The position numbers and the translations under genes were made by a program. Source: an uncultured Gemmatimonadales bacterium (GTDB lineage: Bacteria > Gemmatimonadota > Gemmatimonadetes > Gemmatimonadales > GWC2-71-9). From it: a stretch of 64,000 nt of DNA. The notes beneath the pieces are model-generated. The model was not told the origin of the DNA and did not search any database. It was given only the letters and a program-made list of their open reading frames with translations. Location: positions 1,728,001-1,792,000 of the forward strand of contig CAVZZO010000003.1 of the NCBI GenBank assembly GCA_963779755.1, in the 5' to 3' direction. Shown here in pieces: positions 1 through 12,033 of this stretch (position 1 is its first letter; every line of letters begins with the position of its first letter).

Positions 1-1121
1 GTGGCGTGCATCACGCCGGAGAGCCCGCCGATGATGAACATGGCGATGAATCCCAGCGCAAAGTACAGCGGCGTCTTCATCTGGAGCGAGCCGCCCCAGA
101 GGGTCCCGATCCAGTTGAAGATCTTCACTCCCGTGGGCACCGCGATCAGCATGGTGCTGACGGCGAAGACCGAATCGGCGATCGGCCCCATGCCGGTGGC
201 GAACATGTGGTGGGCCCAGACCCCAAACCCGAGAAAGGCGATGAACGCGCCGGAGAAGACCATGGCCGCGTAGCCGAACAGCGGCTTGCGCGAGAAGACC
301 GGGAGAATCTCCGAAACGATGCCGAAACTGGGCAGGATCAGGATGTACACCTCGGGATGGCCGAAGATCCAGAAGAGGTGCTGCCACAGAATGGGATCGC
401 CCCCGTTCGCCACCAGGAAGAAGTTCGTGCCGAACGTCCGGTCGAGCATCAGCATGATCAGCGCGACGGTGATCACCGGGAAAGCCAGCAGCAGCAGAAT
501 CTGGGTGATGAAGCTCATCCAGGTGAAGATGGGCATGCGCATGAGCTTCATGCCGGGGCCGCGCAGGTTCACGATGGTGGTAAAGAAGTTCACCGCCGCC
601 GCCAGCGAGGCCACGCCGAGGATCTGCAGGCCAATCACCCAGAAGTCCACATTGGGACCGGGTGAAAACGGCCGCTCGGTCAGGTTGGCGTAGCCGAACC
701 AGCCGGTGTTGGGCGCCGCGTTGAGCAGGAAGCTGAAGTTGAGAAACAGCCCGCCCAGAATGAAGACCCAGTAGCTGAAGGCGTTGAGCCGGGGGAAGGC
801 CACGTCCCGCGCCCCGATCTGCAACGGGATCATGTAGTTGAAATACATGGCCGACAACGGCATCACGGCGAGAAAGATCATCGTGGTGCCGTGCATCGTG
901 AACAACTGGTTGTAGGTATCGGGAGAGAGAAACGTGTTTTCCGGCGCCCCCAGCTGGATGCGCACCAGCAGCGCTTCGATGCCCCCGATCAGGAAGAACA
1001 CGAACGCCGAGACCCCGTACAGGATGCCGATGCGCTTGTGGTCGACCGTGGTAATCCAGCTCCAGAGCCCGGTCGGATGGGCGTGTGCGTGGGCGTGCTG
1101 CTCCAGGACCGTGGTTGCCAT
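1..1121 (-). CDS. ctaD: Cytochrome c oxidase subunit I, type A1 (3' end beyond window edge)
   Basis: Manual minus-strand translation from ATG 1121: MATTVLEQH...TTVDHKRIGILY, FTMHGTTM, HLFWIFGHPEVY, WAHHMF, PTGVKIF; downstream of subunit II. Confidence 0.95.
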   Translation of the reverse strand, partial: MATTVLEQHAHAHAHPTGLWSWITTVDHKRIGILYGVSAFVFFLIGGIEALLVRIQLGAPENTFLSPDTYNQLFTMHGTTMIFLAVMPLSAMYFNYMIPLQIGARDVAFPRLNAFSYWVFILGGLFLNFSFLLNAAPNTGWFGYANLTERPFSPGPNVDFWVIGLQILGVASLAAAVNFFTTIVNLRGPGMKLMRMPIFTWMSFITQILLLLAFPVITVALIMLMLDRTFGTNFFLVANGGDPILWQHLFWIFGHPEVYILILPSFGIVSEILPVFSRKPLFGYAAMVFSGAFIAFLGFGVWAHHMFATGMGPIADSVFAVSTMLIAVPTGVKIFNWIGTLWGGSLQMKTPLYFALGFIAMFIIGGLSGVMHA

Positions 1122-1185: not shown

Positions 1186-2259
1186 CTACTTGTGAGCTTC
1201 CAGGTAGGCCACCAGCGCCTTGACCTCGTCGTCGGTCAGGGGGCGCGGCAGCTTCATCAGCGCGCCGGGCTTCAGCGCCTGCGGGTTGTGCAGCCAGCGC
1301 GAAAGATTCTCCGGTGTGTTTTCCAGCATATCGGCCACGATGTGGGTCCGGCTCCCCACGTGCGAGAGATTCGGCCCCATCATGGCCATCACCCCGGCCG
1401 TGGGCGTGCCCATCATGGCGTGGCACCCGATGCAGCCGGCCGAGAGGAACAGCTCGCCCCCCTTCGCCCGGGTGGCGCTGTCGGCGATGGTCGCCATGAC
1501 GCTGTCGGAGACCTTGCCGTTGTTCACCATGGGCGAGCCGATCTGCTCGTTCTGCACCCAGGTGGCGAAGGAGTCGGGCGAATCCACCTTCACCCGGAAC
1601 GCCATGCGCCCGTGCTCCTCGCCGCAGAATTCGGTGCACTGCCCGGTGTAGGTGCCGGTATCGGGCGAGGTGAACCAGAGCGTATTGAACCGCTTGGGGA
1701 AGACGTCGCGTTTGCCGGCCAGGCGCGGCAGCCAGAAGCTGTGCACCACGTCGGCGGAGGTCATATAGAGGCTGACTTCCTTGCCCGCGGGCACATGCAG
1801 CTCGTTGGCGGTCACGACCTTCAGATCGGGATAGCGGAACTCCCACCACCATTGATGCCCCACCACTTCCACCCGGACGGTGTTCCGGGGCCGCTCGTAG
1901 GTCTGGAAGATGGCGTTGATGGTGGGAACCGCGATGATGGCGAGAATGACGGCGGGAATGATGGTCCACACCACCTCGACGGTGGTGTTGCCGTGCGTCT
2001 GCACCGGCTCGGGGTCGTTATCCCGGCCCCGGAACTTGAAGATGGCAAACAGCAGCGCGCCTTCCACCAGCACGAACACCAGGGCCGCCCACTTGACGGT
2101 GGTGAAGAAGACGCCGTCCAGGATGGACGTAAAGTCGGTCTCGGGTCGCAGCGAGCTCTGCGGGTAATGAGAGGCGCAGGCCGCCACCAGCAGGACGGCG
2201 ACGAGCGGCACCCAGCCCCGGCCAAGGGCCGGTGCGATACTCACCTTCCGGAGGGACAT
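1186..2259 (-). CDS. ctaC: Cytochrome c oxidase subunit II with C-terminal cytochrome c (caa3 type), lipoprotein
   Basis: Lipobox LVAAC; VEVVWTIIP; GHQWWW; CuA ligands VVHSFW...CTEFCGEEHGRM; heme c motif CIGCH. Confidence 0.95.
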   Translation of the reverse strand: MSLRKVSIAPALGRGWVPLVAVLLVAACASHYPQSSLRPETDFTSILDGVFFTTVKWAALVFVLVEGALLFAIFKFRGRDNDPEPVQTHGNTTVEVVWTIIPAVILAIIAVPTINAIFQTYERPRNTVRVEVVGHQWWWEFRYPDLKVVTANELHVPAGKEVSLYMTSADVVHSFWLPRLAGKRDVFPKRFNTLWFTSPDTGTYTGQCTEFCGEEHGRMAFRVKVDSPDSFATWVQNEQIGSPMVNNGKVSDSVMATIADSATRAKGGELFLSAGCIGCHAMMGTPTAGVMAMMGPNLSHVGSRTHIVADMLENTPENLSRWLHNPQALKPGALMKLPRPLTDDEVKALVAYLEAHK

Positions 2260-2539
2260 GAGGCGTTCACCCTGACGAGAAGAGCTACGCTGACGGAAAA
2301 ATCGTGCGGCACATTACCTACGAAGCCCCGCCTCGTCAAGCACTTAGGCCGGAATGGCGGGGCCGGAAAGACGGCCCCGAAGGCTCGCCTTCCCGGCCCC
2401 GGGCCGCGGCGGCGGAACAGGAGGACATTAGATACGCGGACAGGAAAGGACAACGCCCCCCCGGCCCCGCGGCGGGGAGCCCCGGGCCCGGTTTCTCAAT
2501 TCCGGCTGAACGGCTATCTTGGAGCAGTCACTCCGGCAC

Positions 2540-2575
2540 CCCGGGCGGCCCCGCCGTCCGGGTTACCCTTTTTTT
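2540..2575 (+). terminator. Terminator/attenuator-like hairpin in greA leader
   Basis: 10-bp stem CCCGGGCGGC-ccc-GCCGTCCGGG, then TTACCC and T7, ending 11 nt before the greA ATG. Confidence 0.45.
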
Positions 2576-2586
2576 GTGCGGTCAGC

Positions 2587-3063
2587 ATGATCCAGGAACT
2601 CCGGGACAAACTGGGCAAGGAAATCGAGGCGTTGACCTACGAGCTCAACGTGATGCTGCCGCAGGCGATTGCCCAGGCCGTGGAGCTGGGCGACCTGCGG
2701 GAAAACTCGGAGTACAAGGCCGCGCTCGAGCGGCAGCAGTTCGTGCAGGCCCGCCTGGGGCAGCTGCATCAGCGCATGAGCCAGCTGCACCAGATGAGCA
2801 CCTCCGCCCCGACCGACCGGGCCGGGCTGGGCTCGCGCGTGACGGTCGAAGACCTGAAGACCGGCGAGAACGAAACCTACGTCCTGGTCCTGGGCGAGAT
2901 GGCCGATTTCGACCTGGGCCATGTGTCGCTCGCCTCTCCGATCGGCCGGGCCCTCAAGGACCGGCAGCCCGGCGACGAGGTCGAGCTGCAGCTCCCCACC
3001 ATGAGGCGGCAGCTCCGGGTGGTCGAGGTGATCACCGTGCACGATACCGCCCCGAAGCAATGA
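2587..3063 (+). CDS. greA: GreA/GreB family transcription elongation factor
   Basis: GDLRENSEY motif; C-terminal VSLASPIGRAL...GDEV. Confidence 0.9.
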   Translation: MIQELRDKLGKEIEALTYELNVMLPQAIAQAVELGDLRENSEYKAALERQQFVQARLGQLHQRMSQLHQMSTSAPTDRAGLGSRVTVEDLKTGENETYVLVLGEMADFDLGHVSLASPIGRALKDRQPGDEVELQLPTMRRQLRVVEVITVHDTAPKQ

Positions 3064-3440
3064 CCGACCCGGGCGAATTCCCCGGCCAGAAGCTGGTGGT
3101 GGTGGGCGACCGGGTGCTCATCACCCCCGAAGAGGGGGACGACCGTACCCGCGTCGGCCTCTACCTGCCCCCGACCGCGCTCGAATCCCAGCAGGTCCAG
3201 AGCGGGCTCATCATCGCCACCGGCCCCGGCGACCCGGTGCCCGACCTGGGCAGCTTCGACGAGGAACCCTGGCGCGCCGGCGAGCGGGAACTGCGCTACC
3301 GCCCCATGCAGGCCCGGGTGGGCGACCACGCCATCTTCTTCCGCAAGGCCGCGGTGGAGATCACGTTCGAAGAGCGGAAATACCTCGTGGTTCCCCAGGC
3401 GGCCATCCTGGTCCTGATCCGCGACGAGCTGCCCCTCTGA
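3060..3440 (+). CDS. GroES/Cpn10-like co-chaperonin (orphan, with insertion)
   Basis: VVGDRVLI...GLYLPP...ATGPG...VGDHAIF...KYLVVPQAAIL; ATGA overlap with greA stop. Confidence 0.8.
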   Translation: MTDPGEFPGQKLVVVGDRVLITPEEGDDRTRVGLYLPPTALESQQVQSGLIIATGPGDPVPDLGSFDEEPWRAGERELRYRPMQARVGDHAIFFRKAAVEITFEERKYLVVPQAAILVLIRDELPL

Positions 3441-4488: not shown

Positions 4489-5421
4489 GTGACCAGCCTC
4501 CCGCCCTCCCGCCTTCCCGCCCTTGATGCCGTCATCGTGGGCGCCGGCCCCGCGGGCCTGAGCGCGGCCTTGATTCTGGGGCGCTGCCGCCGGCGGGTCC
4601 TGGTCTGCGGCAGCGGGCCGCAGCGCAACCTGCTCGCCTCCCACCTGCACGGCTATCTGACGCGCGACGGCATCACGCCGGCCGAATTTCTGCACCGGGC
4701 CCGCATGGACCTCGAACCATACCAGTCGGTGGAACTGCGCGACGCTGAGGTGGTCGAAGCCCGCCGGATCGGCGCCGGCTTCGCCGTCCGTCTCAAGGGC
4801 GGCGAGCGCTTCGAGGCGCGGCGGCTGCTGCTGGCGACCGGGGTGGTTGACGATATTCCGCCGCTGGAAGGGATCGAGTCGCTCTATGGCCGCAGCGTGT
4901 TTCACTGCCCCTACTGCGACGGCTGGGAACTGCGCGACCGGCCGCTGGCGGTTTACGGCCAGCCCGGGCATGCGGCGCTGCTGGCCATGACGCTGCGAGT
5001 CTGGAGCGGCGACCTGGTGGTCTGCACCGGCGGCGCGTCGCCCGAGGCCGAGCACTCGGCCCTGCTGGCACGTCACGGCATCGCCGTGCGCGAAGAGCCG
5101 ATTGCGCGGCTGGAAGGCAGCAACGGGCAGCTCGAGCGGATCGTGTTCGCGAACGGCGAGGGGCTGGCGCGCGAGGCGCTCTTCTTCAGCACCGGCCAGC
5201 GCCAGCACTCGCCGCTCGCCGCCCAGCTGGGCTGCAGCTTCAACCGGAAGGGGGTCGTGAAGACCGGCCGTTGCGAGGCGACCAACGTCCCGGGGCTGTA
5301 TGTCGCCGGCGATGCCAGCGAAGCCACGCAGTTCGTCATTGTCGCGGCGGCGGAGGGCGCCATGGCGGCGTCCGATATCAACGAATCGCTGGAAGAAGAG
5401 GACCGGATCGATCCCGCCTGA
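4489..5421 (+). CDS. Thioredoxin reductase-like NAD(P)/FAD-dependent oxidoreductase
   Basis: GAGPAGLSAA; LLLATG; HCPYCDGWE; TNVPGLYVAGD. Confidence 0.9.
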   Translation: MTSLPPSRLPALDAVIVGAGPAGLSAALILGRCRRRVLVCGSGPQRNLLASHLHGYLTRDGITPAEFLHRARMDLEPYQSVELRDAEVVEARRIGAGFAVRLKGGERFEARRLLLATGVVDDIPPLEGIESLYGRSVFHCPYCDGWELRDRPLAVYGQPGHAALLAMTLRVWSGDLVVCTGGASPEAEHSALLARHGIAVREEPIARLEGSNGQLERIVFANGEGLAREALFFSTGQRQHSPLAAQLGCSFNRKGVVKTGRCEATNVPGLYVAGDASEATQFVIVAAAEGAMAASDINESLEEEDRIDPA

Positions 5422-5594: not shown

Positions 5595-6608
5595 GTGCGC
5601 ATCGCTCCTGCGTGCCGGGTCCCGTTCCTTCCGCTACTGGCCACACTCCTGGTCGCCGGCTGCAACAGCCCAAGCTTCATGCGGCCCGAAGGATCGATGG
5701 CGCGGTCGGAGGCGCACCTCGGCTGGTTGCTGCTGATCATCGCCGCGGCAGTCGAGCTCGTCATCTGTGTGCTGGTTCTGCTCGCCCTGTTCCGCCGCCG
5801 CGACTACGGGCTGGGCCTGTACCGCGGCACCGGCACGGGCGTTCGCTGGATCACCATCGGCGGGGTGCTGGTGCCGGTGATCATCCTGGCAGCGGTCTTC
5901 ATCGTGAATCTGTTCACCCTCAGGGCGGTGGCCACCCCGCCGCCGTCGCCCGATCTGCTCACCATCACGGTGACGGGTCATCAATGGTGGTGGGAGGTGC
6001 AGTATCCGGCGGACGGCCCGGGCGAAGCGTTCGCCACCGCTAACGAGATCCACATCCCGGTGGGCAGGAAGGTGCGGTTCCAGCTGCAGACCGCCGACGT
6101 GATCCACAGTTTCTGGGTCCCGCGGCTGGGCGGCAAGACCGATCTCATACCGGGCCAGCGCAACGTGACGTGGCTGGAGGCCGACAGGGCCGGCGTGTAC
6201 CGGGGGCAGTGCGCCGAATACTGCGGCGCGCAACACGGGCACATGGCCTTCGTGGTGGTGGCGCAGAGCCCGGACGAGTTTGCCGAATGGGAGGCCGGCC
6301 AGCGCCGGCCCGCCGCGGCACCCACCGATCCGGTGGCGCTGCTGGGCCGCCGGGTCTTCGAGAACGGCCCCTGTGTCGTCTGCCACACGATCCGGGGCAC
6401 GGGAGCCCAGGGGACGGTGGGGCCGGACCTGACCCACCTGGCCAGCCGCCGCACCATCGCGGCGGGCACCATTCCGAACACCCGCGGCTACCTGGCCGGC
6501 TGGGTGGCCAATTCCCAGGGCATCAAGCCGGGGAACAAGATGCCGCCGATGGCCCTGGCGCCGCAGGAGCTTCAGGCGGTGATCACGTATCTGCAGAGCC
6601 TGCAATAG
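5595..6608 (+). CDS. Cytochrome c oxidase subunit II with cytochrome c, second copy (start uncertain; ORF opens at 5532)
   Basis: Lipobox LVAGC; GHQWWW; VIHSFW...CAEYCGAQHGHM; CVVCH. Confidence 0.92.
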   Translation: MRIAPACRVPFLPLLATLLVAGCNSPSFMRPEGSMARSEAHLGWLLLIIAAAVELVICVLVLLALFRRRDYGLGLYRGTGTGVRWITIGGVLVPVIILAAVFIVNLFTLRAVATPPPSPDLLTITVTGHQWWWEVQYPADGPGEAFATANEIHIPVGRKVRFQLQTADVIHSFWVPRLGGKTDLIPGQRNVTWLEADRAGVYRGQCAEYCGAQHGHMAFVVVAQSPDEFAEWEAGQRRPAAAPTDPVALLGRRVFENGPCVVCHTIRGTGAQGTVGPDLTHLASRRTIAAGTIPNTRGYLAGWVANSQGIKPGNKMPPMALAPQELQAVITYLQSLQ

Positions 6609-6618
6609 GGGGAGGGAC

Positions 6619-8514
6619 GTGGCCACATCCATTGCGGCCCCCACCGTAGCCGAGCGACTGGAAGAACTCTGGCGCACCGAACCGGGCCTGGTCGGGGCGC
6701 TCACGACGGTGGACCACAAGAAGATCGGCAAGCGGTACCTGGTGACGGCGCTGCTGTTCCTGGTGCTGGGCGGCTGCGAGGCGCTCATCATGCGGCTGCA
6801 GCTGGCCGGCCCCAACGAGTCGCTGCTCACGCCGGACCAGTACAACCAGCTGTTCAGCATGCACGGCGTGACGATGATCTTCCTCTACGCCTCGCCCATC
6901 CTGAGCGGCTTCGGCAATTACCTCTGGCCCATCGTGGTCGGCGCCCGCGACATGGCGTTCCCCCGGCTCAATGCCTTCAGCTACTGGAACTTCCTCTTCT
7001 CGGGGATCTTCATCTACACCGCGCTGGTGATCGGGCAGGCTCCCAACGACGGGTGGTTCAACTACGTCCCCTTTGCCTCGCTGACGTACAACCCCGGGCT
7101 GAACATGGATTTCTACGCCCTGGGCCTGATCTTTCTCACCATCTCGACCACCGTCGGCGCGATCAACTTCATCGTCACCCTGTTCAAGCTGCGGGCGCCG
7201 GGCATGTCCATCAACCGGCTGCCCATCCTGGTCTGGGGCACCCTCAGTACTTCCTTCGCGATCCTGGCCAGCCTGCCCGCGCTCACCGCCGCCTGCCTGA
7301 TGCTCTATCTCGACCGGCGGTTCGGCATGCATTTCTTCGACGCCAACCAGGGAGGCAGCCCGCTCCTGTGGCAGCATCTGTTCTGGATCTTCGGCCATCC
7401 CTGGGTCTATATCATCGTGCTGCCGGCCATGAGCATCGCCTCGGAGATCACCCAGACGTTCTCCCGGCGGCCGCTGGTGGGCTATGTCTTTCTGGCGCTG
7501 GCCACGGTGGCCACGACCATCCTGGGCTTCGGGGTCTGGGTCCACCACATGTTCGCCACCGGGCTTCCGGCCATCTCGACCACGTTCTTCAGCGCGGCGA
7601 GCTTCATCATCGCGATCCCCAGCGCGGTGACCATTTTTGCGCTGATCGCCACCATCTGGCACGGCAAGCCGGTCTTCCGGACGCCGCTGCTCTTCGTGGC
7701 CGGCTTCATCGTGCTGTTCGTGCTGGGCGGGGTGAGCGGCGTGGCCACGGCGGCGGTGCCGTACGACTGGCAGCTCACCGACACCTATTTCGTGGTGGCG
7801 CACATCCACTATGTGCTGATCGGGATCAATCTCTTTCCCGTGATCGGCGGGCTGTACTACTGGGTGCCCAAGTTCACCGGCCGCATGATGAACGAACGGA
7901 TGGGCCGCTGGAACTTCTGGACCATGTTCATCGGCTTCAATCTCGGCTTCTTCCCCATGCATATCGCCGGGCTGCTGGGGATGCCGCGGCGGATCTACAC
8001 CTACCAGGCCGGCCTGGGCTGGCATGCCGTGAACCTGCTCACGACCCTGGGCGCGTTTCTCTTTGCGTTCGGCGTGCTGATGTTCTTCGTGAACTTCTTC
8101 TACAGCCGGAAGCGCGGCGAACTGGCGGGCGAGAACCCCTGGGACGGCCCGACGCTGGAATGGGCCGTGCCCTCGCCGGTGCCGCCGTACAACTTCGCCG
8201 AGATCCCCACGGTTCACAGCCGGCTGCCGCTGTGGGAGGGCCGGCTGGACGGCACCAGCGGGATCGTGCACGAGCTCCCGCCGCTGGCGGAGGGCCATGA
8301 GACGATCGGCACCACACCGCTGGATGCCGAAAAGCAGCAGATCCTCCACATGCCGGGCGATTCCTGGTGGCCGCTGCTCACCACGCTCGCGATTACGGCC
8401 GTCTTCTACGGGCTGGTCGGCCGGATCTGGTGGCTGGCGATCGCCGCCGGGGCCATCATGCTGCTGTGTACCGCCATGTGGCTCTGGCCCACGCACGTGC
8501 TGGAGGAGGGCTGA
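6619..8514 (+). CDS. Heme-copper oxidase subunit I, atypical A-family (GHPWVY)
   Basis: TVDHKKIG, SMHG, GARDMAFPRLN, GHPWVY, VHHMF, VVAHIHY, MPRRIY; two extra C-terminal TM helices; RBS GGAGG before GTG. Confidence 0.95.
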   Translation: MATSIAAPTVAERLEELWRTEPGLVGALTTVDHKKIGKRYLVTALLFLVLGGCEALIMRLQLAGPNESLLTPDQYNQLFSMHGVTMIFLYASPILSGFGNYLWPIVVGARDMAFPRLNAFSYWNFLFSGIFIYTALVIGQAPNDGWFNYVPFASLTYNPGLNMDFYALGLIFLTISTTVGAINFIVTLFKLRAPGMSINRLPILVWGTLSTSFAILASLPALTAACLMLYLDRRFGMHFFDANQGGSPLLWQHLFWIFGHPWVYIIVLPAMSIASEITQTFSRRPLVGYVFLALATVATTILGFGVWVHHMFATGLPAISTTFFSAASFIIAIPSAVTIFALIATIWHGKPVFRTPLLFVAGFIVLFVLGGVSGVATAAVPYDWQLTDTYFVVAHIHYVLIGINLFPVIGGLYYWVPKFTGRMMNERMGRWNFWTMFIGFNLGFFPMHIAGLLGMPRRIYTYQAGLGWHAVNLLTTLGAFLFAFGVLMFFVNFFYSRKRGELAGENPWDGPTLEWAVPSPVPPYNFAEIPTVHSRLPLWEGRLDGTSGIVHELPPLAEGHETIGTTPLDAEKQQILHMPGDSWWPLLTTLAITAVFYGLVGRIWWLAIAAGAIMLLCTAMWLWPTHVLEEG

Positions 8515-8516
8515 CC

Positions 8517-9110
8517 ATGGCGACCGCGCAGGTGTATGATCTTCCCGTCAATGCCGAAGGCCGCCGCAACGTGGGCTTCTGGGGCATGATGCTGTTCATC
8601 AGCACCGAGGCGGCGTTGTTCGCCTTCCTGCTGTTCAGCTACTTCTATCTCGGCTCCAAGGCCCGGGGGCCGTGGCCGCCCGACGGCCCGCCCGACCTGC
8701 GGCTGGTGCTGCCCAACACGTTCATCCTGCTGCTGAGCAGCGCCACCTACTGGTGGGGCGAGCGGGGAATCAAGCTGGGACAGCAGTGGCGCCTCAAGGC
8801 GGGGCTGTTCATCACCTTCCTGCTGGGCGCGGCGTTCCTGGTCATCCAGGGCATCGAGTACAGCAATAAATCGTTCACGCCCGCAAGCCACGCCTACGGG
8901 TCGCTCTTCTTCACCATCACCGGCCTGCACGGCACCCACGTGTTCGTGGGCCTGCTGATGAACGTCTTCGTGCAGCTCCGCGCCTGGGCCGGCCACTTCA
9001 CGAAGGAGCGGCATCTCGCCGTCACCAACGCGGGCTGGTACTGGCACTTCGTGGACCTGGTGTGGATCGCGGTGCTGACCAGCCTCTATCTCTCGCCGAG
9101 GTTCGGATGA
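8517..9110 (+). CDS. Cytochrome c oxidase subunit III
   Basis: FISTEAALF; LPNTFILLLSS; FFTITGLHGTHV; WYWHFVD. Confidence 0.93.
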   Translation: MATAQVYDLPVNAEGRRNVGFWGMMLFISTEAALFAFLLFSYFYLGSKARGPWPPDGPPDLRLVLPNTFILLLSSATYWWGERGIKLGQQWRLKAGLFITFLLGAAFLVIQGIEYSNKSFTPASHAYGSLFFTITGLHGTHVFVGLLMNVFVQLRAWAGHFTKERHLAVTNAGWYWHFVDLVWIAVLTSLYLSPRFG

Positions 9111-9526
9111 CGGGCGCCGGGGCCATGAGCGCCCCCTACCGTGGCCGTGCCGGCAACGCGGCGCTCTGGTTCGGCGTGTTCGGCGCGCCGGCCGCCTGGA
9201 GTCTCCACACGCTGGTCGACTATCCCCTGGTGACGTACGGCTGCTTCCCCCGGAACGTACTGCTCCAGCATCCCGCCTTCGGCGGACTCCTGCCCCTGGC
9301 ACTGATCATCAGCGGCGTGCTGATCCTTGCCGGCCTGGCCGCCTGGTGGACGGCCTGGGTCTGCTGGCGCCGTACCGACGGCGACTTCGCCGATGCCGAA
9401 GGCGCCAGGGAAGCCATTCAGGGCCGGGTGCGCTTCATGGCGTATGCGGGGCTGCTGCTGAGCGCTGTGTTCACCCTGGGCATGCTGTTTACCACCCTGG
9501 GACTCATCCTGGTCCCGCCCTGCTGA
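9107..9526 (+). CDS. Membrane protein of alternative oxidase cluster
   Basis: Three hydrophobic helices; ATGA/TGATG coupling on both sides. Confidence 0.7.
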   Translation: MTGAGAMSAPYRGRAGNAALWFGVFGAPAAWSLHTLVDYPLVTYGCFPRNVLLQHPAFGGLLPLALIISGVLILAGLAAWWTAWVCWRRTDGDFADAEGAREAIQGRVRFMAYAGLLLSAVFTLGMLFTTLGLILVPPC

Positions 9527-10857
9527 TGCCCCGAATCCGTGTCGCCGCGCTCGCCGCCGCACTGCTGGCGCTCCCGGCCCCTCTCTGGGCGCACGGCGGC
9601 CACGCCGAGGCGCTGGCCTGGCAGGCCGATCCGCCGATCGTGATTCTGCTGGCAGCCGGCGCCGCGCTCTACGCCGCCGGGATCGCCCGGTTGTGGCGGG
9701 AGGCCGGCATCGGCACCGGCGTGCCCCGGTGGCGGGCGGCCTGCTTCACCGGCGGCCTGCTTGCGGTGGTGCTGGCGCTCCTGTCGCCGCTCGACGCCCT
9801 GGGCGACCAGCTCTTCGCGGCGCACATGATCCAGCACCTGGTGCTCATCCTGATCGCGGCGCCGCTCCTGGTCCTGGGCGCGCCGGCGCTGGTCCTGCTC
9901 TGGGCGCTGCCCGGCGGGGCCCGGCGGCGCACCGGTGAGTGGTGGCGCACCGGGCCGCTTCTGCCCCGGCTCATCCGGGTGCTCACCCGCCCGGCGGCGG
10001 CCTGGGGCCTGGCCGTCGGTGCCCTGCTCTTCTGGCACATGCCGGGACCGTTCCAGGCCGCGCTCGGCAGCGACACGGTGCACGCGGCGGAACATCTCAG
10101 CTTTCTGGGGACCGCCGCGCTGTTCTGGTGGGTGGTGCTGCAGCCGGTGGGCCGCCGGCAGCTGGGCCACGGCGGCGCCATCCTCTACGTCTTCACCGCG
10201 GGCCTGGTAAGCAGCGGCCTCGGCGCCCTGCTCACCTTCGCCGTCCGGCCCTGGTACCCGCTGCAGACCGGCGGCTTCGCCCGCTTCGGACTCACACCGC
10301 TGGAGGACCAGCAGGTGGCGGGGCTCGTCATGTGGATTCCCGCGGGCCTGATCTACCTGGGAGCGGCGGCCTGGCTGTTCGTCGCATGGCTCCGCGCCGA
10401 CGAGCGGGCCGACGAGCGGCGCGAACGGAGTTTCCATCCTGCATTGGGGGAACGGATGACCCAGCAGCAACGACCCCGCAGCCGCGCGGTGGTCCTGGCC
10501 TGGGCCGCGCTGGCGCTCGCCGGCCTCGGCACCAGCAGCTGCGGCCATGAGATTCATGCCGCGCGATCGGTTGAGGGCGGCGATCCCGCGATGGGCAAGG
10601 CGCTCATCGTCTCCTACGGCTGCGGGGCCTGCCACGTCATCCCGGGCGTGGACAATGCCCACGGCATGGTGGGCCCGCCGCTCACCCATTTCGGCCAGCG
10701 GGTGTATATCGCCGGCGAGGTGGCCAACACGCCGCAGTATCTGATCCGCTGGATCACCGTGCCACAGGCCATCGAGCCGGGCACCGCCATGCCCAACCTG
10801 GGCGTGACCGATGCCCAGGCGCGGGATATCGCGGCCTACCTCTATACCCTGCAATGA
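9526..10857 (+). CDS. CtaG-type oxidase assembly protein fused to a class I cytochrome c
   Basis: LSPLD...AHMIQH...APLL; WH-P; DQQVAGLVMWIP; then CGACH...PGTAMP in the same frame. Confidence 0.85.
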   Translation: MPRIRVAALAAALLALPAPLWAHGGHAEALAWQADPPIVILLAAGAALYAAGIARLWREAGIGTGVPRWRAACFTGGLLAVVLALLSPLDALGDQLFAAHMIQHLVLILIAAPLLVLGAPALVLLWALPGGARRRTGEWWRTGPLLPRLIRVLTRPAAAWGLAVGALLFWHMPGPFQAALGSDTVHAAEHLSFLGTAALFWWVVLQPVGRRQLGHGGAILYVFTAGLVSSGLGALLTFAVRPWYPLQTGGFARFGLTPLEDQQVAGLVMWIPAGLIYLGAAAWLFVAWLRADERADERRERSFHPALGERMTQQQRPRSRAVVLAWAALALAGLGTSSCGHEIHAARSVEGGDPAMGKALIVSYGCGACHVIPGVDNAHGMVGPPLTHFGQRVYIAGEVANTPQYLIRWITVPQAIEPGTAMPNLGVTDAQARDIAAYLYTLQ

Positions 10858-11564
10858 GGAAGCGCTTCGCCGCCGCCTTCCTGGCCCTGGCCCTGGCCCT
10901 GGCTCCCGCCGGGCTATGGGCGCAGTTCGATTCGCTGTCGCTGCAGAGCGCCGTCGATTCCGCCCCCCTCAAGGTCAATGAGGAGGGCCAAGCGGCCCGG
11001 CTGCCGCCCCTGCCCGCGGGAATGACGCTGGATATGATCCGGCGGGGTGACTCCCTGTTCCACGGGCCGGGAGGATGTTTCGTCTGTCACGGGGTGGAAG
11101 CCGAGAGCCGCCCGGGCGCGGGCGATGCCCTGACCACGGCGCTCACCTACGTGCCCTACCGCTGGGATTCCATCGACAGCCTCATCAATCACGGCATTCC
11201 GGACGATATCACCCGCAGCGGGCTTTCGATGCCGGCGCGGGGCGCCCGGTCCAATCTCGATTCCCTGCAGGTGCGCGAGGTTTCGGCCTACGTCTGGGCC
11301 ATCAGCCAGACCCGGGGCGAGCCCTGGCCCGGCGGGCATGCGAGCCATTTCGCCATGGTGCCGGTTGGGGCCAGCAGCGGCACCGACGCGGCCTATGCCG
11401 GGGGCGGCGCGGCCAACCCCGGGCAGCCCGGCACCGGCACGTCCAGCACCGGGGCCGGCCGCCAGGCGATGGCAATCACCTGGTCGCTGGTGGGGGTGTC
11501 GCTGCTGGTACTGCTGGTGATCAATTTCGAGGTGATCAAACCGAGACGGAGTCGTAAGACGTGA
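10854..11564 (+). CDS. Exported c-type cytochrome with C-terminal membrane anchor
   Basis: Signal peptide; CFVCH; SMPARG; hydrophobic C-terminus with basic tail. Confidence 0.85.
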   Translation: MRKRFAAAFLALALALAPAGLWAQFDSLSLQSAVDSAPLKVNEEGQAARLPPLPAGMTLDMIRRGDSLFHGPGGCFVCHGVEAESRPGAGDALTTALTYVPYRWDSIDSLINHGIPDDITRSGLSMPARGARSNLDSLQVREVSAYVWAISQTRGEPWPGGHASHFAMVPVGASSGTDAAYAGGGAANPGQPGTGTSSTGAGRQAMAITWSLVGVSLLVLLVINFEVIKPRRSRKT

Positions 11565-11574
11565 GATGTGAGAT

Positions 11575-12033
11575 GTGAGTCGCGATCTGCTGCCGGCCCG
11601 CCGTAACCCCGTCGCCCGTCTGTTTCTCCGGGCCCTGCGCCGCCGCTGCCCCGCCTGCGGCGGGAGACCGCTGTTCGTCACCTGGTTCCGCATGGTGCCG
11701 AACTGTCCGGTGTGCGGCCTGGAGCTGGAGCGGGGTGAGCAGGGGTACTGGCTGGGGGCCTACTTTTTCAACCTGATGGCCATGGAGGTGGCGTTCGTCG
11801 TCTTCCTGGGGCCCGCGCTGATCCTCACCTGGCCCCATCCTCCCTGGCAGCTGTTGAAGTATCTCTCGCTGGCGCTGATGGTGGTGGTGCCGGTGGCGTT
11901 CTTTCCCTGGTCCAAGACCCTGTTCCTGGCATTCGACCTGATGGTCCGTCCGCCGGAGCCGGGAGAATTCGAGGCGCCGCGGGAGGCTCCCCTCAACCGG
12001 CCCTGGCGCCGGGGTCCGCCCGAACCCGGCTGA
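11575..12033 (+). CDS. DUF983-like zinc-ribbon membrane protein
   Basis: RCPACG...CPVCG...ERGEQGYWLGA; two TM helices. Confidence 0.75.
   Translation: MSRDLLPARRNPVARLFLRALRRRCPACGGRPLFVTWFRMVPNCPVCGLELERGEQGYWLGAYFFNLMAMEVAFVVFLGPALILTWPHPPWQLLKYLSLALMVVVPVAFFPWSKTLFLAFDLMVRPPEPGEFEAPREAPLNRPWRRGPPEPG

Follow-up and report, generated by a model that had tools for sequence, protein, structure and literature searches.

A caa3-type oxidase lineage with tryptophan at the D-channel glutamate site and no K-channel lysine, encoded in a Gemmatimonadales genome

Introduction

Two residues of subunit I, the D-channel Glu (E286 in R. sphaeroides) and the K-channel Lys (K362), are the most studied of those implicated in proton pumping by cytochrome oxidase; it has been debated for decades whether the mechanism requires the Glu or simply finds it convenient. 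Together with E101 of subunit II, they are the established proton-delivery residues of A-family oxidases. The question of how an oxidase might manage with none of the three is raised by an operon in a 64,000-nucleotide stretch of DNA from an uncultured Gemmatimonadales bacterium (hereafter the window; bare position numbers refer to it, and those prefixed C1 or C3 to contigs of the same genome, outside the window). The subunit I gene of this operon, ctaD, specifies Trp in the position of the Glu and Thr in that of the Lys, its subunit II lacks the Glu, and every metal ligand is retained. The Trp is invariant in a monophyletic group of relatives, most of which lie beside genes for pyrroloquinoline quinone (PQQ)-dependent alcohol dehydrogenases. 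On balance we regard the enzyme as probably a functional, O2-reducing caa3-type oxidase of A-family descent and of the lineage known as a-II, which would serve a PQQ-dehydrogenase branch of respiration, take up protons over water and hydroxyl routes, and pump with reduced efficiency.

Results

Channel residues and metal ligands

The genes and codons on which the argument turns, and the canonical oxidase genes encoded nearby in the window, are as follows.

5595..6608, plus strand: coxB, subunit II (CuA) with a C-terminal cytochrome c fusion (PF00116, PF00034; TIGR02866 score 184.7, cut-off 147.7)
6619..8514, plus strand: ctaD, A-family subunit I of 631 aa (TIGR02891 score 693.2, cut-off 670.75; PF00115, E 5.8e-151)
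7402..7404, plus strand: TGG codon of W262, site of the D-channel Glu (R. sphaeroides E286), from translation and motif positions
7630..7632, plus strand: ACC codon of T338, site of the K-channel Lys (R. sphaeroides K362), from translation and motif positions
3..1121, minus strand: canonical A1-type ctaD paralog (GHPEVY, VPTGVKIF), its 3' part beyond the window, from translation and profiles
1186..2259, minus strand: coxB-cytochrome c of the canonical paralog, membrane Glu kept (VEVVWT), from profiles and alignment

The CtaD translation, which contains LFWIFGHPWVYIIV and IIAIPSAVTIFAL, reads LFWIFGHPWVY around W262 and IPSAVTIF around T338, where the paralog reads GHPEVY and VPTGVKIF. All six metal-ligand His residues (H82, H260, H309, H310, H395 and H397) are present, as are the cross-link Tyr (Y264), the Arg pair (R457-R458) and the D-channel residues D111, N100, N118 and N183. 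The site assignments were cross-checked through a cluster representative (P0238) in which the corresponding Glu, Lys and Asp fall at positions 278, 354 and 124, which we take to be the P. denitrificans residue numbers. In subunit II, the column of R. sphaeroides E101 (1m56_B; the column is confirmed by the E101A entry 6ci0_B) is occupied in a HMMER alignment by the Thr of VRWITIGG, and in a MAFFT alignment the Glu of the paralog's VEVVWT pairs with the neighbouring Ile. No Glu or Asp is found at positions 85-99 of subunit II in any of 73 sequences of the clade (72 loci and the target). The CuA ligands H171, C206, C210, H214 and M217 and the CXXCH motif are all there. A sequence-only reading of the stretch had reported the GHPWVY motif with TGG at 7402-7404, the IPSAVTIF motif with ACC at 7630, the absence of the A2-type YSHP motif, the missing subunit II Glu, and the integrity of the six His, the cross-link Tyr, the D-channel entry, the RR pair and CuA; translation and alignment agree with it on every one of these points, with F-G rather than Tyr-Ser preceding HP (WIFGHPWVY).

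The enzyme scores above the TIGR02891 cut-off, carries the six His and the helix VI His-Tyr (HPxVY), and groups inside the A family by the phylogeny below. Neither of the two canonical channels (a D channel with Glu or Tyr-Ser, a K channel with Lys) is complete, as W262, T338 and the lack of a Tyr-Ser pair attest, with the entrance and stem of the D channel kept. The Glu of XGHPEV that marks subtype A1 is replaced in GHPWVY, and the YSHPXV that marks subtype A2 is absent from WIFGHPWVY. The enzyme does not group with the B family, since the genome's own B-type subunit roots the tree on a long branch and subunit II has no acidic residue at 85-99. Nor does it resemble a nitric oxide reductase, as the clade keeps the Tyr and three CuB His without exception and has CuA, which cNOR and qNOR lack (criteria from the available part of PMC11214002).

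Two other candidate features were considered and set aside. A His-to-Thr change at the Mg site (T387) was rejected as a signature of the clade, the canonical paralog having Thr there as well. A helix II Tyr/Ser pair (Y90 and S92) was rejected as a stand-in for the Glu, as it is not conserved in the clade (the Burkholderia multivorans member has Leu at 92), and Y90 was weakened further by the presence of the same Tyr in a canonical Mycobacterium enzyme.

Conservation, selection and phylogeny

A search over 5.8 billion proteins gave a list of 120 best matches, of which one is the target and the other 119 share 64-71% identity with it. Together with three representatives of 50%-identity clusters, these make up a MAFFT alignment of 123 clade members, to which the counts in this and the next section refer unless stated otherwise. 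Trp occupies the Glu site in 123/123, including all 119 nearest homologs listed, a degree of conservation far beyond chance. The Lys site holds A in 84, S in 23, G in 8, T in 6, V in 1 and Q in 1, so that A, S, G or T is found in 121 of the 123. The sequence-only reading had looked to homologs that share the Trp, the Thr and the missing subunit II Glu. The first and last of these hold throughout (123/123 and 73/73); the Thr as such is not conserved, and what stands in its place is the absence of Lys together with a small residue.

Selection was gauged on loci from a scan of one genome per species, which returned at least 590 relatives, the best 80 loci being analysed. Seventy-seven sequences entered the calculation, namely 76 of the 80 loci and the target, the four loci left out being those for which no frame that contains HPWVY, begins with the DHK start motif and exceeds 550 aa was found. 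For the 25 closest gene pairs, the ratio of nonsynonymous to synonymous substitution rates (dN/dS, NG86 method) is 0.04-0.20, and 0.06-0.20 where dS is below about 1.1; the median over all pairs, 0.23, is unreliable owing to saturation of dS, and only the close pairs were used.

HMMER, run exhaustively over 1.84 billion cluster representatives, found 21,180 relatives. A FastTree phylogeny was built from 134 full-length sequences, with the B-type enzyme of the genome as its root; of 21 sequences whose coverage was too low for the filter, 20 were removed, and the one retained was the B-type outgroup. The Trp clade is monophyletic, with 28 tips and an SH-like support of 0.999, and is nested within a larger superclade of 57 tips, none of them with Lys (support 1.0), that lies within the A family. 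The sister of this superclade is the A1 group that contains the window's canonical paralog (support 0.937). Most of the remaining superclade members combine an acidic residue (Glu or Asp) at the first site with Gln or His at the second, and it is the Lys-to-Gln clade that is sister to the Trp clade. Where superclade sister lineages have lost the Glu, the site drifts among A, L, Q, P, R and S. Because the rest of the superclade mostly has Gln or His where the Lys would be, and because the basal member of the Trp clade (P0154) combines Trp with Gln, the tree points to an order of change in which Lys was lost first, Glu gave way to Trp next, and Gln to a small residue last. The monophyly of the clade, the invariance of its Trp and the low dN/dS of close pairs all support the suggestion of the sequence-only reading that this is a distinct subfamily, and one under selection.

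Other remodelled residues and the predicted structure

Below the Trp, the D channel is invariant or nearly so (D111 in 123, N118 in 123, N183 in 123, N100 in 122, S176 in 120 and T177 in 115), and hydroxyls have been added to it, namely T178 in 123/123, where canonical enzymes have Ile or Leu, and S96 in 120/123. S99 is likewise found in 120/123, the target itself having Gly. On helix VII, T296 and T299 are each present in all 123 members. The column of T299 is Thr in 123/123 of the Trp clade and in 11/17 of the sister clade, as against Ile in 41/41 enzymes with Glu and Lys, and for this reason the Thr tracks the loss of Lys. Elsewhere on a possible K path, S335 is conserved in 121/123, S328 in 122/123 and S275 in 123/123, with Ala at position 341 in 120/123. 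Residues that arise together with the Trp are T377, I403, N404 (Thr in P0154) and W103. The clade alignment shows no acidic residue or Tyr conserved at a new site within the membrane core.

The sister Gln clade has taken another course, having lost both N100 and N118 and acquired Glu in place of N183 in 16/17 and a Glu in helix II in 16/17. This sister Glu/Gln clade, with its differently remodelled D channel, includes a gene on a Sinorhizobium medicae plasmid (L088:5962-7881) and the representatives P0131, P0133 and P0144.

An AlphaFold2 model of CtaD (pLDDT 94.3, pTM 0.94) has 14 helices, and its best Foldseek match is the caa3 oxidase of T. thermophilus (2yev_A, TMq 0.88). The 48 Foldseek matches listed comprise only oxidases of cytochrome c or quinol that belong to the aa3, caa3 or bo3 kind, with no ba3 entry among them. 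The best sequence match among solved structures is the Mycobacterium CtaD 8hcr_F, and none of the solved structures comes from the Trp clade. Depths estimated solely from the DSSP helix limits of the model would put T299 and T296 about 15 and about 20 Å, respectively, below the CuB histidines, presumably close to the depth of the missing Lys, and N404 about 12 Å below those histidines of helix X that ligate the hemes.

Distribution and the other oxidases of the genome

The clade occurs in Gemmatimonadota, in Alpha-, Beta- and Gammaproteobacteria and in Bryobacterales (at least 590 species genomes). The best 80 loci come from Gemmatimonadota, from the Alphaproteobacteria Rhizomicrobium, Aurantimonas manganoxydans, A. 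coralicida, Devosia, Hyphomicrobium, Microvirga, Methylovirgula and Phenylobacterium, from the Gammaproteobacteria Steroidobacteraceae, Dokdonella and Methylobacter, from Caenimonas terrae, and from one Bryobacterales metagenome-assembled genome. Plasmid or chromid carriers are found in B. multivorans, B. cenocepacia, Paraburkholderia, Caballeronia, Mesorhizobium, Methylocella and Methylocystis, and the B. multivorans member (L087) reads FAHPWVY and IPSAVAVF. At the DNA level, the pattern W-x-F-[G/A]-HPWVY was found in 24 of 401 Gemmatimonadota genomes, all in two families, with 0/141 among genomes of the other ten families of the phylum and no matches to a reversed control. Some Gemmatimonadota genomes have two Trp-type copies (L092 and L097 in G004; also G338), with one copy fused to subunit III. 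Because all five of the other carriers examined also encode a canonical Glu/Lys oxidase or an A2 oxidase, the Trp-type enzyme looks like an accessory and patchily distributed oxidase.

The genome of the window (4.23 Mb in four contigs, 97% complete) has five subunit I genes, namely the canonical neighbour, the target, an A-type with Glu and without Lys, a B-type, and one without the cross-link Tyr. The third A-family gene (C1:749989-751815, minus strand) keeps GHPEVY, has Ala at the Lys site (IPATIATL) and has Gly in place of the Mg-site Asp. In the B-family copy (C3:1469626-1471353), Ile takes the place of the Glu and Thr that of the Lys, with FPSLATAF where the target reads IPSAVTIF. The fifth homolog (C3:28279-30000, plus strand), which has IIGHGTQQ in place of GHPxVY, may be a member of a recently described family of heme-copper oxidases that resemble nitric oxide reductases.

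Linkage to PQQ-dependent alcohol dehydrogenases

At the best 80 loci, a neighbouring PQQ dehydrogenase was scored as present where a tblastn high-scoring segment pair exceeded 200 aa at E <= 1e-10. By this measure one lies beside the oxidase at 68/80 loci, and at 48 of the 53 that have full 7 kb flanks. A MoxJ-like binding protein occurs in 51/80 and a cytochrome c in 64/80. Pfam searches of flanking open reading frames (ORFs) found the PQQ β-propeller dehydrogenase in nine of 14 loci, to which tblastn adds three of the same 14; the ORFs picked for the Pfam searches included overlapping frames, which accounts for the shortfall. All six dehydrogenases tested score above the cut-off of TIGR03075, the methanol/ethanol family, and the binding protein above that of TIGR03871. 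A D-x-D motif is found in 63/63 aligned dehydrogenases (62 from the loci and the genome's own copy), placed where lanthanide enzymes have their additional Asp. The term 'Ln-coordinating aspartate' is used for that residue in the available part of PMC9291206.

In eleven control stretches of 20 kb that surround further oxidase genes in the same five genomes, a PQQ dehydrogenase was found at none of nine canonical, A2 or bo3-like oxidases and at one of two Glu/Gln loci. In the sister Glu/Gln clade, a PQQ dehydrogenase adjoins two of three loci checked, including the S. medicae operon.

Gene order of the operon and its surroundings

Gene assignment with Pfam and NCBIfam describes one plus-strand operon spanning 5595-12033. 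The N-terminus of CoxB is lipoprotein-like, and CtaD has 14 predicted transmembrane helices, of which 12 form the core and two a C-terminal extension; a PF12270 match to residues 579-623 is weak (E 8.7e-4, 19.8 bits, below the cut-off of 26.9). The remaining genes are listed below.

8517..9110, plus strand: coxC, short five-helix subunit III of 197 aa (PF00510, profile positions 78-255 only)
9131..9526, plus strand, start uncertain (the ORF opens at 9062): small membrane protein of about 131 aa, probable fourth subunit, from synteny
9526..10857, plus strand: Caa3_CtaG assembly factor with a C-terminal cytochrome c fusion (PF09678, E 1e-60; PF00034)
10854..11564, plus strand: monoheme cytochrome c with a C-terminal membrane anchor (PF13442, PF00034)
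11575..12033, plus strand: DUF983 protein, possibly COX-associated (PF06170, E 1.5e-9)

The small membrane protein has no Pfam or NCBIfam match. A tblastn search with the operon proteins over the 80 loci found coxB in 79/80, coxC in 80/80, the small membrane protein in the same place in 52/80, and CtaG and/or its cytochrome c domain near the operon in 79/80. Homologs of the 10854-11564 cytochrome c occur in 2/80, both Gemmatimonadales, and the DUF983 gene, in 1/80, is not conserved with the clade. Domains and synteny thus support the earlier assertion that the oxidase is supplied with its own CtaG and extra cytochromes c.

Several neighbours fall outside this core. A thioredoxin-reductase-like flavoprotein gene (Pyr_redox_2; 4489-5421, plus strand) lies directly upstream of coxB and is not conserved in the 80 loci. 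An ORF of 378 aa (2304-3440, plus strand) matches Cpn10 (GroES-like) at residues 265-311 only; either the ORF has been called too long or the protein is an unusual fusion, perhaps. An HbpS-like/GlcG gene (PF03928) lies just upstream of ctaG in 16/80 loci (for example L009:4709-5272), those named being mainly gammaproteobacterial.

Discussion

Relation to known oxidase systems

The operon belongs to a type that has been described before. Cytochrome c oxidase (COX) operon type a-II is defined, in the accessible text of Degli Esposti et al. 2014 (PMC4013037), by COX1 being fused to COX4, by a COX3 of five helices and by PQQ dehydrogenases that are frequently present, and its taxa are given as Devosia, Hyphomicrobium, Aurantimonas, Methylocella, Methylobacter and Betaproteobacteria in that of PMC4986455 (Degli Esposti 2014). 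The target shares with it the COX2-cytochrome c fusion, the five-helix COX3 and a caa3-type CtaG in the cluster; the listed taxa overlap those of the Trp-type loci, and a PQQ dehydrogenase is often adjacent in both, although not in the target operon itself. For the COX1-COX4 fusion, the target has only its two-helix C-terminal extension and weak PF12270 match. In the accessible portions of these two papers proton channels are not discussed, and in that of PMC4013037 the terms channel, E278, E286 and K354 do not occur. Type a-II was later filed under 'A1 oxidases' (PMC6431628, as far as its accessible text goes), a filing that, judged by the Glu criterion and the residues predicted here, cannot fit the Trp-type enzyme.

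The second precedent is a cluster in which XoxF3 genes of Acidobacteria and Gemmatimonadetes are co-localised with CoxI, CoxII, CoxIII, a hypothetical protein of about 110-130 aa, CtaG and CytC (PMC10875860, in part). The order there, CoxII, CoxI, CoxIII, small hypothetical, CtaG and CytC beside XoxF3, XoxG and XoxJ, matches the arrangement of the 80 loci, with their lanthanide-type PQQ dehydrogenase as the putative counterpart of XoxF3, and the protein at 9131-9526 matches the hypothetical between CoxIII and CtaG; the passages of PMC10875860 on this cluster are silent on oxidase residues. A third is the caaBAC-caaP-caaC operon of B. cenocepacia H111, treated as an ordinary caa3 with no mention of channels in the accessible text of PMC11742914. 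By architecture alone it is identical to the B. multivorans clade member, and it differs from the target in the fusion of subunits I and III.

With respect to the oxidase itself, the target shares with A1 aa3 and caa3 enzymes (R. sphaeroides, P. denitrificans and the window's paralog) the fold, the six His, the His-Tyr, the D-channel Asp and Asn, the Arg pair and CuA, and differs in the Glu-to-Trp and Lys-to-small replacements, the absent subunit II Glu and the extra invariant T178, T296, T299, T377, N404 and W103. Like the A2 oxidases (the T. thermophilus and Rhodothermus caa3 enzymes, with YSHPXV), to which its best structural match belongs, it has caa3 architecture and no Glu atop the D channel; unlike them, it has F-G instead of the Tyr-Ser pair and no Lys, which A2 enzymes keep (VPTGIKIF-type in YSHPAVY representatives). 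With B-family ba3 it has in common that the Glu is replaced by a residue of hydrophobic or aromatic character and that Ser...Thr stands for Thr...Lys in helix VIII, yet the two are unrelated by descent, the B-type being the outgroup, and the target retains D-channel residues and has no subunit II entry Glu. Lys-less A-family oxidases have been catalogued in Fe(II) oxidisers, with the D channel stated to be unchanged in the set (PMC8239418 and its preprint, both in part). In these acidophilic enzymes (Degli Esposti et al. 2020/2021, in part), K354 and COX2 E78 are substituted and the Tyr and metal ligands kept, as in the target, but the Lys site holds I, L, M, V or F rather than A, S, G or T, and both the clades and the operon context (rus) differ. 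The accessible table of PMC8239418 has no entry from the clade-carrying genera, its single Burkholderia row being a canonical a-III oxidase with Lys.

Full-text searches for HPWVY or GHPWVY returned no paper and searches for channel loss nothing on this clade, with the proviso that subscription-only literature may bear on novelty. As far as searchable text goes, then, the operon type and the linkage to XoxF are already known, and the Trp and the combined loss of three channel residues have not been described.

Proposed proton routes without the canonical relays

From domain content, electrons would pass from cytochrome c donors to the c domain on subunit II, then to CuA, heme a and the heme a3-CuB center. 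Gene linkage suggests that most carriers use the enzyme as a terminal oxidase dedicated to a periplasmic PQQ methanol/ethanol dehydrogenase of the lanthanide type, whose partners would be a XoxJ-like protein and a XoxG-like cytochrome c. The D channel would run from its invariant entrance and stem, past the extra hydroxyls (S96, S99 in most members, and T178), to end at the invariant Trp. The K path would have a small residue for Lys, the new T296/T299 pair at the same membrane depth, and no subunit II entry Glu. Since the D-channel stem is invariant, hydroxyls have been added, the Lys site is strictly small and a new Thr pair has appeared, the pattern suggests that protons move on water and hydroxyl wires, with neither an acidic nor a basic relay, as in B-family oxidases. 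The Trp is invariant where the same site drifts in sister lineages without Glu, which argues for a specific role, possibly as a plug against back-leak or as a hydrogen-bond donor to a water. Pumping would be reduced or absent, which we consider more likely than full pumping, with membrane potential still generated by charge separation. Pressed to its most specific form, the proposal becomes tentative: a lineage of A-family oxidases may reduce O2 with no carboxylate atop the D channel and no Lys in the K path, with Trp as gate or plug, having evolved as a weakly coupled or non-pumping electron sink for lanthanide-dependent oxidation of alcohols and methanol in the periplasm.

Several observations weigh against this account. 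A2, B and C families pump without a D-channel Glu, and for that reason loss of the Glu does not by itself show loss of pumping. Where T178, T296, T299, T377 and N404 lie with respect to W262 or to the K path follows from helix register only, and the conservation of the D-channel residues could be structural. All members of the clade are known from genes and sequences alone. No PQQ dehydrogenase is found in the window or within 300 kb of the operon. The genome's best homolog (54% identity, with a DYDA motif) lies 333 kb away on the same contig, at C3:1394377-1395939, near a gene for a XoxG-like cytochrome c (C3:1397034; the pair spans C3:1394377-1397291), so that the usual oxidase-dehydrogenase cluster is split in this genome. 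Twelve of the 80 loci and the B. multivorans locus likewise have no PQQ dehydrogenase within reach. Finally, in the part of PMC11742914 at hand, the caa reporter of B. cenocepacia H111 gave a signal only when nutrients were limiting on solid medium, so that the physiological importance of the enzyme is unproven.

Alternative explanations

The strongest competitor, which we nevertheless think unlikely, is that the enzyme is a fully coupled pump in which another group or a bound water cluster replaces the Glu at near-canonical stoichiometry, the Trp merely shaping the cavity. The invariance of the D-channel entrance and stem speaks for it, as do the polar residues T178, T377, N404 (Thr in P0154), S96 and S99 that arise together with the Trp, and the example of the A2 enzymes, which pump without the Glu, with a Tyr-Ser pair in its role. 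It has to contend with a membrane core in which the clade conserves no Glu, Asp or Tyr at a new site, with the variability of Y90 and S92 and the occurrence of the former in a canonical enzyme, and with the concurrent loss of the Lys and of the subunit II Glu.

Less likely still is a B-like single channel, in which an analogue of the K path (S335, residue 338, S328, S275, Y264, T296, T299 and waters) carries all protons and the D channel is merely structural. The genome's own B-family enzyme, in which the Glu and Lys sites hold Ile and Thr respectively (FPSLATAF against IPSAVTIF), lends this some plausibility, as does the conservation of S335, S328, S275, T296 and T299 in 121 to 123 members. 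B-family enzymes, however, keep a subunit II entry Glu, which is absent in 73/73 clade sequences; position 341 is Ala in all but three members; and the D-channel Asp and Asn are invariant here though lost in the sister clade, which argues for function.

That the enzyme has turned to other chemistry, as a nitric oxide reductase, a peroxidase or some other non-O2 activity, is improbable. The sequence-only reading had entertained NO or peroxide reduction, for which only the unusual channels can be adduced, along with the inefficient NO reduction of which A-, B- and C-family oxidases are capable (PMC11214002, in part); this part of it found no support. The His-Tyr, the three CuB His, CuA and an assembly context of the Cu and heme a type, with Caa3_CtaG, are hallmarks of O2 reductases, whereas nitric oxide reductases lack the Tyr cofactor and have altered metal ligands (same source, in part), and the locus is linked to an aerobic periplasmic dehydrogenase and not to denitrification genes. 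Decay of a redundant paralog, or a sequencing error at two codons, which might be suspected from the canonical A1 oxidase next door and from the scant laboratory expression of a Burkholderia homolog (known from a source available in part), is the least probable of all and, judged by conservation, is excluded for practical purposes (the earlier reading, too, had seen no look of decay), given an open frame with all ligands, conserved synteny, the same substitutions in all 119 nearest homologs listed from independent assemblies, and a dN/dS of 0.06-0.20.

Implications

The replacement of Glu by Trp and of Lys by a small residue, kept under strong purifying selection in hundreds of species, offers a natural test of how these enzymes handle protons and so of models of oxidase gating. 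If the proposal is true, the Trp-type enzymes would represent a third solution to proton delivery in A-type oxidases, beside the Glu of A1 and the Tyr-Ser of A2, and one of interest both for oxidase bioenergetics and for lanthanide methylotrophy. Inventories that label genes of the Trp clade 'A1 aa3-type, proton-pumping, low affinity' are probably wrong. The lineage is present in culturable and genetically tractable bacteria, and its linkage to lanthanide-type PQQ dehydrogenases makes it a candidate terminal oxidase for XoxF3-type systems, in which soil Acidobacteriota, Gemmatimonadota and Proteobacteria are rich.

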